Assembly (NCBI GenBank): GCA_963762965.1
Contig: CAVXME010000001.1
Span: 1,314,328 to 1,378,327, forward strand
Source of the DNA: Terriglobales bacterium
GTDB lineage: Bacteria; Acidobacteriota; Terriglobia; Terriglobales; Acidobacteriaceae
Direction of reading: 5' to 3'
Length of the DNA stretch: 64,000 nucleotides
Each line of letters begins with the position of its first letter. Within the stretch, counting starts at the first letter, position 1. A model generated the notes under the pieces. It saw only the letters and a list, made by a program, of their open reading frames with translations. It was not told where the DNA came from and searched no databases. Made by a program: the position numbers and the translations under genes. Shown one piece after another: positions 4,494 to 62,633 of this stretch.

Positions 4494-4528
4494 CAGCCTC
4501 GCCTTCGGGCTGAGGCTTTTTGTTTTTG
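4494..4528 (+). terminator. Rho-independent terminator/attenuator between rpmA and obg
   Basis: The stem is agcctcgcc/ggc(t)gaggct with a ttcg loop (4495-4517), followed by tttttgttttt. Confidence 0.6.
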
Positions 4529-4605
4529 GTCGTTGGTCGCGCGTCGTTGGTCGTTCGCAAAATCAAGGGCCCTTAGCCAACGACCTACGACCAAGGACGA
4601 ACGAC
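4528..4605. repeat. Heptamer-periodic inverted repeat (GTCGTTG/CAACGAC units) forming a long hairpin
   Basis: The left arm ggtcgttggtcgcgcgtcgttggtcgttcg (4528-4557) is the imperfect reverse complement of ccaacgacctacgaccaaggacgaacgac (4577-4605). The element ends 8 nt before the obg ATG. Confidence 0.85.
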
Positions 4606-4612
4606 TGCTTTT

Positions 4613-5659
4613 ATGTTTATCGATGAGGCAAAAATTCGAGTCAAGGCCGGGGACGGCGGCAACGGATGCGTTGCATTCCGGCGCGAGGCGTTCGAACCCC
4701 GTGGCGGGCCGTCTGGTGGGGACGGCGGCGATGGCGGCGATGTCGTCATGGAGTCCAGCGAGCGCCACAATACACTCGTCCACTTTCGTTTTAATCCTGA
4801 ATACAAGGGACAGCGTGGGCAACACGGGATGGGGTCCAACTGTACCGGGAAAATGGGCAAGGACGTCTTGCTCAAAGTTCCAGTAGGAACGATCGTGTAT
4901 GACTTCGATACCGGCGAGAAGGTGCATGACTTTTCCCGTCCTGATGAAAGCGTCGTAATCGCCAAGGGCGGACGCGGCGGGCGGGGGAATGCGCAGTTTG
5001 CGACGTCCACGCATCAGGCGCCGCGAGAGCATGAAGACGGGCGTCCCGGCGAAGAGAGAACTTTTCGGCTGGAGCTGAAGCTGCTGGCCGATGTCGGGCT
5101 GGTGGGATATCCGAATGCGGGGAAGTCAACTTTGATCTCGCGAATCTCGGCAGCGAAACCGAAAATTGCTGATTATCCTTTTACTACTCTGCAGCCGAAC
5201 CTCGGCGTGGTCGTAGTTGGCGACGAAAAAGACGAGCGGAGCTTTGTGGTGGCCGACATCCCAGGGCTGATCGAAGGCGCACACACTGGCGCCGGTCTGG
5301 GGATCCAGTTTTTGCGACACATCGAACGCACACGATTGCTGGTGCATCTGGTGGATGTGTCCGATGCGAGCGGTCGTCCGGACCCTGCTAAAGATGCGGA
5401 AATCATCATGGGAGAGCTGGCTAGTTTTGGTGCGGGACTGGATCAGAAGCCGATGATTCTGGTGGCGACGAAGATCGATGTCGCTAACAAAGACAAGTTG
5501 GCCAAGCTGAAGCGCTATGCCAAGAAAAAGAAGCTGGAGCTATTTGCGATTTCGGCTGTAACGGGCAAGGGGATTGAGGAGTTGAAGTTTGCCATGGCGG
5601 CGAAGGTGGAAGAAGTCCGGAAAAGCCTTCAGGAATCAGCCGTCAGCGATCAGGATTAA
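4613..5659 (+). CDS. obg: GTPase Obg/CgtA
   Basis: [25 protein letters not shown].. is the Obg fold. The G1 motif is GYPNAGKST, and DIPGLIEGA is also present. Confidence 0.95.
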
Positions 5660-5693
5660 CTGCCGAGAACGCTGGGAGCGCGGAGGAAATGCA

Positions 5694-5756
5694 GGGGTCC
5701 TTCGACTCCGCATAATCATTCGCTTCGCGAACGATTATGCTGCGCTCAGGATGACA
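5694..5756 (+). repeat. REP-like element, family R1
   Basis: ggggtccttcgactccgcataatcattcgcttcgcgaacgattatgctgcgctcaggatgaca has the same conserved ends as the copy at 4082. Confidence 0.85.
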
Positions 5757-5822
5757 AGATTGTTTGGATGGGGAATAACAAAGGCGTCCGTTAAATTGGA
5801 CGCCTCTTTTCTTTGGGTTTCG

Positions 5823-5852
5823 CCAACGACCAACGACGCACGACCAACGACC
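5823..5852. repeat. Heptamer-periodic array (CCAACGA units), single arm
   Basis: ccaacgaccaacgacgcacgaccaacgacc lies just 3' of the histidine kinase stop codon. No partner arm was seen nearby. Confidence 0.75.
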
Positions 5853-5856
5853 GCTC

Positions 5857-60631: not shown

Positions 60632-60649
60632 AGCATCATCACGACACAG

Positions 60650-60698
60650 GTAGGGACGGACGCCTCGTCTGTCCGTTGAGCGAAGCTCAACTGTTTTT
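60650..60698 (+). repeat. Palindromic repeat family R4, whose 3' hairpin plus T-run can act as the pcrA terminator
   Basis: gtagggacggacgcctcgtctgtcc, then gttgagc-gaa-gctcaac followed by tgttttt (60675-60698). Confidence 0.7.
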
Positions 60699-60746
60699 CG
60701 ACCGAAGTCGGCACCTAATTTTGAAGGAGAGCGATAAACTGCATTC

Positions 60747-60908
60747 ATGGCAAACACGAAGAAACTAACCAAAGAAGAACGCAAAAAGGTAAAGCGGGCA
60801 GTCCGCAAAAAGAAAAAGACAGATAGTCCGCTCAAGCCCCGCGAATACGCCCGCGGTTCGGCGAAGCGCAAGGTGAAGAAGCTGGTACGCGGCACCGCGA
60901 AGCGGTAA
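60747..60908 (+). CDS. Small highly basic hypothetical protein (53 aa)
   Basis: It is not in the ORF track because it is under 60 aa. The product is MANTKKLTKEERKKVKRAVRKKKKTDSPLKPREYARGSAKRKVKKLVRGTAKR. GAAGGAGA lies 17 nt upstream, which is a long spacing. Confidence 0.4.
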   Translation: MANTKKLTKEERKKVKRAVRKKKKTDSPLKPREYARGSAKRKVKKLVRGTAKR

Positions 60909-60911
60909 GCA

Positions 60912-61003
60912 GCATTTAGCATCTGGCACTTAGCACTTAGCCGCGCGGCGTTCGGTTTCTCAACCGACGTTCGCTGGCCAAATGCTAAGTGCTAATTGCC
61001 AAT
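60912..61003. repeat. Heptamer-periodic inverted repeat (TTAGCAC units)
   Basis: The arms are gcatttagcatctggcacttagcacttagcc (60912-60942) and ggccaaatgctaagtgctaattgccaat (60976-61003). The right arm overlaps the predicted TTG start of the permease. Confidence 0.8.
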
Positions 61004-62603
61004 AGCGTCTTCCAGGAGACAGGACCACTTGTCAGAAACCCCGACGGCTGCACCATCCGCAGAGACGATCTACACATCGGACAACCAACTTCTCTGCTGC
61101 AAAAGTATCGACAAGCTGATCTCCGACTCCGAAACTCCCCAGCATGCGCTGAAGAAGTCGCTCGGCCCCTGGTCGCTTACCGCGCTGGGCATCGGCGCCA
61201 TCATCGGCTCCGGCATCTTCGTGCTTACCGGCACCGCCGCCGCCGGAGAACATTTCGAAGCTCCGTCCATCCTGCACGCGCAGGTGATGGACTTGCTCGC
61301 CAACCTTCTGCGTACCGGAAGCACCGCAGGCGCGCTCATGCACGGACGTCCCGCCGCCGGGCCCTCGATCGCAATCTCTTTCCTGTTGGTCGCGGTGGCT
61401 TGCAGTTTTGCCGGCCTGTGCTATGCCGAGCTGGCTTCGATGATCCCGATCGCCGGCAGTGCCTACACGTATTCATATGCGACGCTCGGCGAAATTTTTG
61501 CCTGGATCATCGGCTGGGACCTGATCCTCGAATACGTAGTCAGCAACGTCGCCGTCGCCGTTGGATTCAGCGGATACGTCAACGCCCAGCTATCTGCTTT
61601 TGGCCTCAACTTGCCGGAGAAATGGTCCAACCCAGTTTTTGCCGGTGGACACTGGACGGGCGCCTACTTCAACGCTCCCGGCTTCCTGATCGTTTTCATC
61701 CTGACGTTGTTGTTAGTGCGCGGCGTCCGCGAATCAGCGAAGGCCAACAACATCATGGTGATGGTCAAGATCGGTGCGATTCTGACTTTCCTCGTGGTGG
61801 GCGGCCTGCTGGTAAACAAAGCCAATTGGACGCCGTTTGCCCCTTCGGGCTTTGCTGGAATCGTGACCGGCGGCGCTATCGTTTTCTTCACCTACATCGG
61901 ATTCGATTCGGTTTCCACGGCAGCCGAGGAATGCAAGAATCCGCAACACGATCTGCCCTTCGGCATCATCGCTTCTCTGGTGGTCTGCACCGTTCTCTAC
62001 ATTGGCGTGGCGATTGTCTTGCTGGGGATGATGAAGTACACAACTTTCGTTTCCGGCCCTGCCGCCGATGCTCCCGTCGCTTACGCGCTACAGCAACTCG
62101 GCGCGCACCGCTTCTTCCGCTCGGTGATCATCCTGGGCGCGTTGATGGGCATGATCTCGTCGCTTCTAGTCTTTCAGTACGGACAAGCGCGCATCTGGTA
62201 CGCCATGTCCCGCGACGGACTTTTACCCAAGCTCTTTTCCGCCGTCCACCCCAAATTCAAAACTCCGCACTGGTCCACCTGGATCGCCTGTTTCGCCGTC
62301 GGCATACCAGCGGGCGTAGTGGACATTGGCGATGCCGCCGATCTCTCCAACATCGGCACGCTCTTTGCTTTTGTTCTGGTTTCGCTGGGAGTGATTTTGT
62401 TGCGCCGCCGTCAACCGGACCGCAAACGCGCCTTCCGCGTCCCCTTCGTCCCCTGGTTCCCGTTGATCTCCATCCTGCTCTGCGGCGGCCTCATGACCGG
62501 ACTGACCGTCATCACCTGGCTCCGCTTCATCATCTGGCTCGCTCTGGGACTGTGCATTTACTTCTTCTACAGCCGCCACCGCAGCGAATTCGCCAGGAGA
62601 TAG
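60996..62603 (+). CDS. APC-family amino acid permease (cationic amino acid transporter-like)
   Basis: ..KSIDKLISDS...LKKSLGPWSLTALGIGAIIGSGIFVLTG.. with ~13 TM segments. The TTG start is uncertain. The overlapping 548-aa ORF at 60989..62635 is a shadow frame. Confidence 0.88.
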   Translation: MPIASSRRQDHLSETPTAAPSAETIYTSDNQLLCCKSIDKLISDSETPQHALKKSLGPWSLTALGIGAIIGSGIFVLTGTAAAGEHFEAPSILHAQVMDLLANLLRTGSTAGALMHGRPAAGPSIAISFLLVAVACSFAGLCYAELASMIPIAGSAYTYSYATLGEIFAWIIGWDLILEYVVSNVAVAVGFSGYVNAQLSAFGLNLPEKWSNPVFAGGHWTGAYFNAPGFLIVFILTLLLVRGVRESAKANNIMVMVKIGAILTFLVVGGLLVNKANWTPFAPSGFAGIVTGGAIVFFTYIGFDSVSTAAEECKNPQHDLPFGIIASLVVCTVLYIGVAIVLLGMMKYTTFVSGPAADAPVAYALQQLGAHRFFRSVIILGALMGMISSLLVFQYGQARIWYAMSRDGLLPKLFSAVHPKFKTPHWSTWIACFAVGIPAGVVDIGDAADLSNIGTLFAFVLVSLGVILLRRRQPDRKRAFRVPFVPWFPLISILLCGGLMTGLTVITWLRFIIWLALGLCIYFFYSRHRSEFARR

Positions 62604-62633
62604 CTCTTAGCTGTCAGCTCTCAGCCATCAGCT
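62602..62633. repeat. Heptamer-periodic array (AGCTNTC/TCAGCNN units), single arm
   Basis: agctcttagctgtcagctctcagccatcagct overlaps the permease stop codon. Confidence 0.75.

Follow-up and report, generated by a model that had tools for sequence, protein, structure and literature searches.

Heptanucleotide tandem arrays, about half of them paired as inverted arms, in a 64-kb stretch of a Terriglobales genome and in its relatives

The window, its genes and its heptamer arrays

The stretch of DNA analysed in the current study (the window) comprises 64,000 nt of a Terriglobales genome (assembly GCA_963762965.1, contig CAVXME010000001.1, nt 1,314,328 – 1,378,327, forward strand), and its subject is a set of short tandem arrays of 7-nt units (heptamers) that lie mostly between the genes. 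Judged from its sequence, the host is an uncultured soil acidobacterium of the class Terriglobia, and not a cyanobacterium. The best relatives of the Obg GTPase gene (nt 4613–5659) belong to metagenome-assembled genomes labelled Terriglobia, Terriglobales, Acidobacteriaceae or Acidobacteriota, with amino-acid identities as high as 87%, and syntenic contigs were recovered with ribosomal protein L27; one of these, from GCA_049587355.1, matches the window at 98.9–99.4% identity along most of its length. The window has a G+C content of 54–59% and carries ordinary housekeeping genes (rplU-rpmA-obg, nadD, rsfS, rlmH, cobA, accD, folC, thrS, tgt, yajC-secDF, tonB-exbBD, relA and others), named from orthologous loci and from Pfam searches on 10 open reading frames (ORFs), which makes the annotation a partial one.

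Arrays of at least six unit types occur at 11 loci of the window. They are listed below with their coordinates, strand and manner of detection, which was by Tandem Repeats Finder (TRF), by a period scan (described in the next section), as inverted pairs, by folding or through the translation. The last line gives a stretch that does not belong to them.

4526–4555 (+): 5' arm of about four units TTGGTCG/GGTCGTT (TRF, inverted pair), directly after the T tract of the rpmA terminator (4494–4520)
4576–4607 (+): 3' arm of four units CCAACGA (scan, inverted pair), ending 5 nt before the obg ATG at 4613
5821–5854 (+): unpaired array, CCAACGA x 4.3 (TRF, scan), between the obg terminator (5782–5815) and the stop, at 5857, of a convergent histidine-kinase gene
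11325–11356 (+): 5' arm of about four units GTCGTTG (inverted pair), beginning 3 nt past the cobA stop
11393–11426 (+): 3' arm, CCAACGA x 4 (TRF, inverted pair), ending 5 nt before the accD ATG at 11432
12266–12301 (+): 5' arm, GTCAGCT x 4.7 (TRF), in the last accD codons, supplying the accD TGA stop
12392–12414 (+): 3' arm, AGCYGAG x 3 (TRF, inverted pair), directly before the folC start
13835–13859 (+): unpaired array, CAGAGAC x 3 (TRF, scan), between the folC stop (13761) and an acyltransferase domain gene
23762–23794 (+): array GCTCTCA/GCTNTNA x 4.5 (scan, translation), inside the tgt reading frame, encoding GSQLSALSSQP
27748–27772 (+): 5' arm, AGCTCCT x 3.3 (TRF), beginning 3 nt past the secF stop
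27786–27812 (+): 3' arm, GCTAGNA x 3–4 (folding)
56246–56278 (+): array [GA]CAATCT/AAAATCT x 4.4, period 7/14 (TRF), between the stop of a RidA-family gene and the start of an FKBP gene; identical in five related contigs
56824–56857 (+): AATCT-type array (TRF), a direct copy of 56246–56278, downstream of the FKBP gene
60910–60942 (+): 5' arm, AGCACTT x 4.4 (TRF, inverted pairs)
60975–61010 (+): 3' arm, AAGTGCT-type (inverted pairs), just before or over the start of an amino-acid permease gene
62598–62636 (+): unpaired array, AGCTNTC x 4–5 (TRF, scan), the first unit holding the permease TAG stop (62601–62603)
9022–9054 (+): not of the heptamer family; an irregular G+C-rich stretch at the nadD stop, below threshold and missed by both TRF and the scan

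Five hairpins can be drawn from these arrays (4526–4607, 11325–11426, 12266–12414, 27748–27812 and 60910–61010), and six arrays (beginning at 5821, 13835, 23762, 56246, 56824 and 62598) have no nearby inverted partner. The rpmA-obg hairpin (4526–4555 / 4576–4607) is imperfect, with a predicted folding energy of -35.6 kcal/mol (z = -3.2). The one between cobA and accD (11325–11356 / 11393–11426; -43.3 kcal/mol, z = -2.75) takes up the spacer from 3 nt past the stop to 5 nt before the ATG, and that formed by 12266–12299 and 12392–12414 spans a 101-nt spacer (-53.6 kcal/mol, z = -3.0). Downstream of secF (27748–27772 / 27786–27812; -32.6 kcal/mol, z = -2.85) the structure consists of helices of 5–6 bp with single mismatches between them. 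The most extreme z value (-5.6; -47.2 kcal/mol) is that of 60910–60942 / 60975–61010, which is kept, with point changes, at the related loci L093 and L094 (relatives are cited by locus number throughout). Among the unpaired arrays, 5821–5854 has no fold of its own and differs by point changes only across L081–L088.

Three arrays bear on the reading frames beside them. The accD gene reads into the array at its end and has its TGA stop inside it, giving a product of 289 aa here, as against 283 aa in L083 and L084, where the stop precedes the array. In tgt, alignment with solved bacterial TGT structures places a 19-residue insertion, EVPWAGSQLSALSSQPTLQ, at nt 23745–23801, the core of which is encoded by the TCAGCTN-type array, and from the sequence it appears that a heptamer repeat has been absorbed into a surface loop of this essential enzyme. 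The true start of the acyltransferase domain gene is probably downstream of the array at 13835–13859; the Pfam domain begins at residue 93 of the long ORF.

An initial annotation, made from the letters of the window alone, had named at least 11 loci with three to five heptamer units each. The arrays as such were borne out by both TRF and the scan, but two of the places named were not. The supposed TAGGCNN array at 9022–9054 is one arm of another cluster of palindromic repeats (9030–9255, motifs GGCTTTAGCC / GGCTAAAGCC; see below), and the GAGACCN array at 11366–11380 amounts to two units within a hairpin loop. A repeat absent from that first list was found in the last codons of obg (5624–5653), where AATCAGC, CGTCAGC and GATCAG form three TCAGC-type heptamer units (TRF period 14); this stretch falls within the variable C-terminal tail of the protein, with 6 nt left between its end and the stop codon.

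Period, position and pairing of the arrays in Terriglobales

The window was compared with the obg region (± 10 kb) of 80 other Terriglobales species (1.47 Mb; 81 genomes and 1.53 Mb with the window). Arrays of every period p were counted at equal stringency, by requiring at least 16 matches (base equal to the base p further on) in 21 compared positions and removing stretches of shorter period, and second-order Markov simulations of the window supplied the background. A rough self-trained gene caller, whose start-codon calls are unreliable, divided the sequence of the 81 genomes into 79% coding and 21% non-coding.

In the window, TRF reports period-7 arrays at 4526, 5823, 11396, 12266, 12393, 13836, 27749, 56248, 56824, 60911 and 62609. 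The scan finds 10 arrays of period 7, against a Markov expectation of ~0.1 per period, and none at periods 4, 5, 8, 10, 11 or 13; four arrays of period 14 are the harmonic of 7, and a few at multiples of three lie inside genes. No period-7 array was found by the identical scan in 100 kb of E. coli K-12 that included its rplU-rpmA-obgE region. Over all DNA of the 80 relatives there are 158 arrays of period 7, 25 of period 8, 10 each of periods 10 and 13, three of period 11 and none of period 5. The initial annotation had made its proposal depend on an excess over periods 5, 6 and 8 and on a preference for gene boundaries, and the non-coding DNA of the 81 genomes bears it out: it holds 139 arrays of period 7 as against 21 of period 8 (a ratio of 6.6 to 1), nine of period 10, seven of period 13, two of period 11 and none of period 5, and these 139 are 83% of all 168 period-7 arrays, while non-coding DNA is 21% of the sequence (~18-fold enrichment). 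The heptamer arrays are real, occur far beyond chance and extend through the Terriglobales. An assembly artefact is not supported, the same arrays being present in independent ENA, NCBI, JGI and Logan assemblies. A look-up with CobA returned only two short contigs, both identical to the window, and metagenome contigs scanned for exact patterns of the rpmA-obg hairpin gave no match.

The 7-nt period had been described as kept throughout. The excess of period 7 agrees with this, but units of 6 and 8 nt are found within heptamer arrays and relatives carry arrays of period 8. Some of the latter are inverted pairs (AATTACNN / AATCACNN; L005 16577–16684, L034 14736–14865, L037 18163–18254 and L073 14311–14420) with the architecture of the heptamer hairpins and one base more per unit.

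With regard to phase variation of the contingency-locus kind, in which a changed unit number would switch a gene through its reading frame or promoter spacing, unit number does vary, and the arrays occupy leaders and 3' regions of genes with housekeeping roles (obg, accD, folC, secF) but neither promoter spacers nor the 5' portions of ORFs. Their density per kb of spacer is 0.64 for co-directional, 0.38 for convergent and 0.16 for divergent gene pairs. Where an array end faces a stop codon, it overlaps the stop in 21% of cases (3% under random placement in the same spacer) and lies within 10 nt of it in 39% (19% at random); the figures for start codons are similar, with the unreliability of the start calls noted above. 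A placement exactly at gene boundaries, often within 10 nt, was part of the first description; of the arrays listed there, 23763–23794 is not at a boundary but inside tgt. The canonical terminators of rpmA (4494–4520) and obg (5782–5815) are separate structures, and the arrays start just past their T tracts. Identity with intrinsic terminators was rejected on this ground and because the heptamer hairpins are 65–150 nt long with periodic mismatches. Nor is a safety net of stop codons in all three frames favoured; units with stops are more frequent (67%) than in G+C-matched background (49%), but they show no bias to the sense strand (30 vs 23). The unpaired arms, small in number, have no clear orientation to transcription.

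Pairing was scored where two consecutive units recurred as the reverse complement within 250 nt, with no more than two mismatches. An inverted partner was found for 66 of the 139 non-coding arrays and a direct partner for five, so that inverted ones are 13 times commoner. The pairing reported initially is real, but it concerns about half of the arrays and not most of them, in the window (five hairpins to six unpaired arrays) as in the lineage. The 53–54 distinct pairs have a median of five units per arm and a median arm spacer of 31 nt (interquartile range 17.5–66, range 3–129); the spacing of 20–90 nt first given for them applies to 65%, but not to the rest. Folded as single strands, paired arrays reach -25 to -89 kcal/mol and consist of helices of ~6 pairs with a single mismatch at every seventh base. 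Arms match at 5.78 of 7 positions per unit, compared with 5.69 of 7 when the order of the partner's units is shuffled (p about 0.008), and the smallness of this gain indicates that the arms are mostly two arrays of one consensus with a faint trace of mirrored order.

If the folding models hold, the paired arrays must, once transcribed, form stable hairpins in the rpmA-obg, cobA-accD-folC and secF-tonB transcripts, and these paired arrays may be supposed to exist for the sake of such RNA structures, selected in operon spacers and 5' leaders as exonuclease barriers, RNase sites, attenuators or hairpins that tune translation, roles that have been described for REP elements and suggested for TAACTGA repeats (see below). 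The gradient from co-directional to divergent spacers (0.64, 0.38 and 0.16 per kb) agrees with this, as do the stable folds of the window (-33 to -54 kcal/mol, z = -2.75 to -5.6), the arms that end 5 nt before the starts of obg and accD in leaders without a Shine-Dalgarno sequence, the rpmA-obg hairpin and loop, which recur in L081 with hardly any change, and a connection of start-adjacent heptamers with translation in Beggiatoaceae and Nostoc (PMC4679880; bioRxiv 10.1101/2022.06.06.494920). Hairpins selected as RNA should, because G-U pairs count, fold better on the transcribed strand, but folding energy and G-U pairs are strand-symmetric; of 38 pairs located between co-directional genes, 17 folded more stably as the sense strand and 19 as the antisense strand (p = 0.71). 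Alignable arms are 86–91% identical between genomes, similar to other intergenic DNA (85–88%; third codon positions, 74–75%), which means that they have no added conservation, only more indels. Close relatives lack the obg hairpin or have a single arm, about half of the arrays are partnerless, and the proper terminators stand separately just upstream. No array of the window matches an Rfam 15 family, the only match at the gathering score being tRNA-Arg at 57315–57387. Selection for RNA structure is, on balance, an unlikely reason for the existence of the arrays.

As stated in the initial annotation, the unit differs between loci, and the 168 arrays comprise 74 distinct units when rotations and reverse complements are merged. 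The commonest are AACGACC, AACTGAG, AAAGCTG, ACGACTG and AACTGAC. Units are lower in G+C (45.5%) than other non-coding DNA (55%) and their composition is far from random: CTGA is present in 33% of them compared with 6% of background heptamers, AGCT, ACTG, CTAG, GTAC and AATT are enriched 3- to 6-fold (AGCT 6-fold), and CGC, CCC and AGG are depleted. These non-random CTGA and AGCT cores would suit arrays of binding sites, either for a nucleoid-associated or global regulator on double-stranded DNA or for a single-strand-binding protein of the oligonucleotide-binding (OB)-fold/cold-shock-domain type that covers ~7 nt per monomer. Variation focused on one or two unit positions with the core kept (see below), the strand-symmetric properties of the arrays and, by our own reckoning, the length of three units (21 bp, two turns of B-DNA) would fit as well. 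Integration host factor (IHF) or HU has been suggested at comparable sites of Geobacter (PMC2700814), and cold-shock proteins bind heptamers with one protein per unit (PMC4679880). Against protein binding stands the diversity of 74 units in 168 arrays, which would require many proteins or a very loose specificity. The arrays are also scarcest in the divergent spacers that contain promoters, which argues against the role of a promoter regulator, their turnover is rapid, with one unit type replacing another at a fixed site, and they are conserved no better than alignable intergenic DNA elsewhere. Binding arrays of this kind are thus very unlikely to be the explanation.

Turnover between relatives and the origin of the arrays

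Comparison of closely related genomes shows the arrays changing by whole units. Over 12.4 kb shared with the 98.9%-identical genome L082, the sole indel exceeding 1 nt is one AACGACC unit that is missing from the L082 counterpart of the 4576–4607 arm (at nt 4579). Over a further 20.5 kb compared with that genome (L091, 99.4% identical), there are four multi-nt indels, among them a 6-nt unit missing from its 27786–27812 arm (at nt 27792). L083 and L084, which are 98.5% identical to each other, differ by a sole multi-nt indel, one 7-nt AGCTGAT unit in the arm corresponding to 12392–12414. Other arrays have a constant number of units among relatives (the array downstream of obg, the AATCT arrays and the hairpin at 60910), and so these do not appear to be hypermutable in the manner of contingency loci.

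At ~88% identity entire arms are gained, lost or replaced. Between rpmA and obg, the 4526–4555 arm is retained in L081 and L082, L081 has three rather than four units in one arm of the hairpin, and L083–L090 have neither arm. The alignment of filled and empty sites breaks off at 4527 and resumes at 4608, with no target-site duplication. Between cobA and accD the 3' arm is common to the ~88%-identical relatives, but the 5' arm consists of four units in the window and of a single one, exactly 21 nt less, in L083 and L084, and L081 carries at this site a hairpin of another unit (GCTTTTN) beside a relic of the old arm. In some of the more distant genomes the interval from the rpmA terminator to obg is empty, and others have there a single CAACGAC arm, AGCTGTC/GCTGANN hairpins or an unrelated palindrome; in L078 the two arms are not complementary to each other. 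These single-arm and 21-nt differences, together with the lack of a target-site duplication, are those of growth in place and not of the insertion of a finished element. At the other end of the window, the end of the permease gene and the following spacer with the 62598–62636 array (61546–62715) cannot be aligned with the otherwise 93–99%-identical L093, which has an extra DUF6036 gene there.

The sharp presence or absence of a complete 80-nt hairpin between relatives is also what would be seen if the arrays were non-autonomous mobile hairpins, similar to repetitive extragenic palindromic (REP) elements and their paired form (REPIN) or to miniature inverted-repeat transposable elements (MITEs), with the heptamers as putative binding sites of a transposase encoded elsewhere. 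Unit families that recur at several loci and in many genomes, and a density that varies by lineage, would agree with mobility, and candidate enzymes exist: Acidobacteria have a distinct clade of genes resembling REP-associated tyrosine transposases (RAYT), the 'TIRYT' tyrosine transposases (PMC3733652), and three RAYT-like genes are present in the loci retrieved here (L053, L037 and L036). In Geobacter, insertion sequences occur at fixed distances from analogous sites (PMC2700814). But none of the three RAYT-like genes is flanked by heptamer arrays; their flanks are palindromes of another family (TCGTATCAGGGCACGCC... and GGGCTTTAGCCCCTG). No transposase gene or insertion sequence was found in the window, as far as its partial annotation goes. 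Among the five CAACGAC arms of the window, mutual similarity does not exceed similarity to the bare consensus, the loops of different copies show no conservation, filled and empty sites differ by no target-site duplication, and arms are gained singly and unit by unit. Mobility of this kind is therefore judged distinctly unlikely. As for the individual classes, MITEs were rejected given the lack of a target-site duplication at rpmA-obg, the unrelated loops of hairpins with the same unit and the separate gain of arms, and REP/REPIN elements given a unit that varies by locus, same-family arms that are only 69–87% alike and the absence of a common tag.

The explanation we prefer, with a probability of roughly 0.55, is that the arrays are heptanucleotide microsatellites of the type known in cyanobacteria as short tandemly repeated repetitive (STRR) sequences, driven by slippage and, in addition, copied in inverted orientation. 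Arrays would arise and change in length in non-coding spacers through slippage in a 7-nt register, which would account for the unit-wise indels. An array would often be copied in inverted orientation nearby, with intramolecular template switching on a nascent hairpin as the likeliest mechanism, and the product would be a long, imperfect palindrome whose two arms, as a rule of ~5 units each (range 2–11), lie about 30 nt apart. Units with short palindromic or CTGA/AGCT-type cores would be favoured, perhaps because they misalign easily. Extension would continue until coding sequence is reached, and since arrays would spread until they meet it, they would come to abut or supply stop codons and to run up to starts. 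They would persist where they do little harm, mainly in spacers with the 3' end of a gene (co-directional or convergent ones), and rarely between divergent promoters. Any hairpins formed in the transcripts would probably affect mRNA decay or the translation of neighbouring genes, by analogy with REP elements, but as a side effect and not as the cause of their existence.

Several observations weigh against slippage with inverted copying. Slippage alone gives no reason for units of 7 nt rather than 5, 6 or 8, and the statistics in favour of a second arm made by template switching are weak. Slippage followed by random mutation predicts that deviations are spread evenly over the unit, but 66.7% of them fall in its two most variable positions, compared with 59.9 ± 1.0% in simulations conditioned on detection, which hints at some constraint on the core of the unit. 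The density of arrays over one and the same chromosomal region ranges from 0 to 9 per 21 kb between genomes (dispersion index 2.27, p = 1e-7) and suggests a lineage-specific factor. Unit families recur across many genomes, that of AACGACC in 12 sources, and the rpmA-obg hairpin, its loop included, is nearly identical in the window and L081, the genomes being 88.8% identical overall. Finally, three of the CAACGAC arms in the window share flanks (GCC on the 5' side, YGYTYTTA on the 3' side), which could reflect copying between loci, although such copying of CAACGAC arms could not be demonstrated.

A further possibility is that the 7-nt register is the footprint of a dedicated factor (a single-strand-binding protein of the OB-fold/cold-shock type, or a specialised replication or repair activity) common to Terriglobales, cyanobacteria, Geobacter and Beggiatoaceae, which would both favour and use arrays with CTGA/AGCT cores. 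There is room for such a factor because CTGA heptamers occur in all four lineages (PMC4679880; PMC2700814), the variation within units is focused and the density depends on lineage, and we consider it a long shot.

Related repeats in other bacteria and further repeats of the window

Bacterial heptamer repeats are known since the work on the STRR sequences of heterocystous cyanobacteria, which reportedly dates from 1990; two of the units described there, TTGGTCA and CAACAGT, are similar to TTGGTCG and CAACGAC of the window. The comparison with STRRs made in the initial annotation is sound as an analogy, since here too several tandem heptanucleotide units per genome are dispersed and mostly intergenic, and the period-7 excess, the several dispersed unit types and the variation in unit number are those of heptanucleotide simple sequence repeats. 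But the host is an acidobacterium, so that the arrays are not STRRs in the strict sense; they are also short (3–5 units in the window, up to 11 in relatives), and about half of them are paired in inverted orientation, a trait outside the STRR definition.

The accompanying statement that such a combination of features fits no described class of element was too strong. Heptameric repeats are over-represented in many bacteria, where they are attributed to polymerase slippage, and three heptanucleotide repeats are known in the cyanobacterium Calothrix, according to those parts of PMC4692102 that summarise earlier work (for the former, Mrazek 2007). The intergenic heptamers GGGAATC and GGGGA(T/C)T of Xanthomonas and Nostoc vary in length and sequence at the same sites between close species and are occasionally inverted (Rehm et al. 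2015, PMC4692102), as are the arrays described here; unlike these, they are G-rich and form quadruplexes, whereas the present units are richer in A+T and depleted in CCC/GGG. TAACTGA arrays that end beside start codons occur in Beggiatoaceae, cyanobacteria and Bacteroidetes (MacGregor 2015, PMC4679880). They are likewise almost all intergenic, with 2–6 units that hold stop codons, and the related units AACTGAG, AACTGAC and CAACTGA are found in Terriglobales; but there one dominant unit has a fixed orientation to the downstream gene, while here there are dozens of units with no clear orientation bias, and inverted pairs are rare there (one in 170) and make up about half here. The REP, REPIN and bacterial interspersed mosaic elements (BIME) of proteobacteria are also extragenic imperfect palindromes of co-directional or convergent spacers, a few nt from stop codons, variable in presence between strains and able to form mRNA hairpins. 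REPs, however, are near-identical copies of 20–40 nt that bear a tag, GTAG or CGTC, and have a cognate RAYT, in contrast to the periodic, untagged arms seen here, whose unit varies by locus.

The closest published analogue in architecture is found in Geobacter metallireducens, which has dozens of paired sets on opposite strands, each of 3–5 tandem units of 7, 8 or 8–9 nt and separated by a variable distance (Aklujkar et al. 2009, PMC2700814). Three classes of unit (GTTGCTYN, 8 nt; TCTCCGTS[Y], 8–9 nt; MTYCTGA, 7 nt; classes 1–3, sites designated Gmet_I###A/B) occupy mostly intergenic places, as do the several unit families of a single Terriglobales genome. The 7-nt class has a CTGA core, and CTGA is here the most enriched 4-mer after AGCT; period-8 variants exist in Terriglobales too. 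Pairs of opposite-strand sets with 3–5 tandem units of 7–9 nt, by which the Geobacter sites are defined, number five in the window and 53–54 across the 81 genomes. The phylum and the unit sequences are different. The Geobacter sites were read by their authors as binding sites of an IHF/HU-type regulator and have insertion sequences at a fixed distance, of which the window has none, and that paper gives no comparative evidence on changes in unit number.

No paper on heptamer repeats in Acidobacteria was found, so that the lineage and the comparative detail are what is new; the kind of repeat is already known, if poorly understood. The presence of the same kind of repeat, with inverted pairing, in an unrelated soil phylum points to a general property of bacterial DNA metabolism and to more than a cyanobacterial curiosity, and the many close Terriglobales genomes make the process observable step by step. 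In practical terms, short-read assemblies break at the arrays (contig L098 stops within one), the annotated ends of genes can be displaced by them, and strain typing could use them as markers.

Other repeat families were encountered in the window. The nadD-rsfS spacer (9030–9255) contains a cluster of small G+C-rich stem-loops, GGGCTTTAGCCCC, CAGCGGCTAAAGCC, GCAGGCCTTCCCAGGCCTGC and CAGCGCTGAAGCGCTG, ~190 nt of which are missing from L083, and this other family of palindromes explains the TAGGCNN locus of the initial annotation. Its motifs match inverted repeats that flank RAYT-like (IS200/IS605-type) genes in L053 (4117–4184, 4654–4871), L037 (1266–1335, 1810–2139) and L036 (4592–4663, 5137–5483), and by sequence it looks like a family of REPs or terminal inverted repeats tied to the acidobacterial 'TIRYT' transposases. 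Beside the RAYT-like gene of L036 (5454–5586) are six to seven tandem 17-nt units, TGCCCTGATACGANNNC, each of which includes the end of the inverted repeat flanking that gene.

A dispersed repeat of ~85 nt (GGGGTCCTTCGACTCCGC...hairpin...GCGCTCAGGATGACAAG) occurs downstream of obg (5693–5777) and between rplU and rpmA (about 4075–4170). Pieces of it of the type TGTCATCC[CT]GAGCGAAGC lie near 44560, 46270, 46390 and 62640, with L081 14501–14562 also listed. In L024, L026, L038 and L048 the rpmA-obg spacer is filled by a palindrome carrying a motif of the TGTCATCCCGAGCGAAGC type. Another dispersed family is represented by a near-perfect palindrome with 17-nt arms (CCCATTCTAAATTTCGC / GCGAAATTTAGAATGGG), found at 49698–49738 and 53469–53507, each copy following a common GGCCCATTCAAGCCCG.TTTTGGCTTGAGTGGGG segment just past a stop codon (of relA and of a DUF1398 gene, respectively); further positions of this family are 49640–49690, 50001–50143 and 53400–53460.

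A UvrD/PcrA-type helicase, encoded by one gene of 877 residues in the 98%-identical L093 (4430–7641), is split in the window (58006–60631) into at least two ORFs (58006–58641 and 59102–60631) and is split in L094 as well; ~600 nt beside it are present in L093 only. The split gene may be a pseudogene or the product of assembly errors. Many genes of the window have no Shine-Dalgarno sequence and show instead a TANAAT-like hexamer 5–8 nt before the start (for example GGCTATAATCCAACATG), as at 15136, 17352, 46403 (-), 47433 and 55129 (-), a sequence arrangement that suggests frequent leaderless transcripts.

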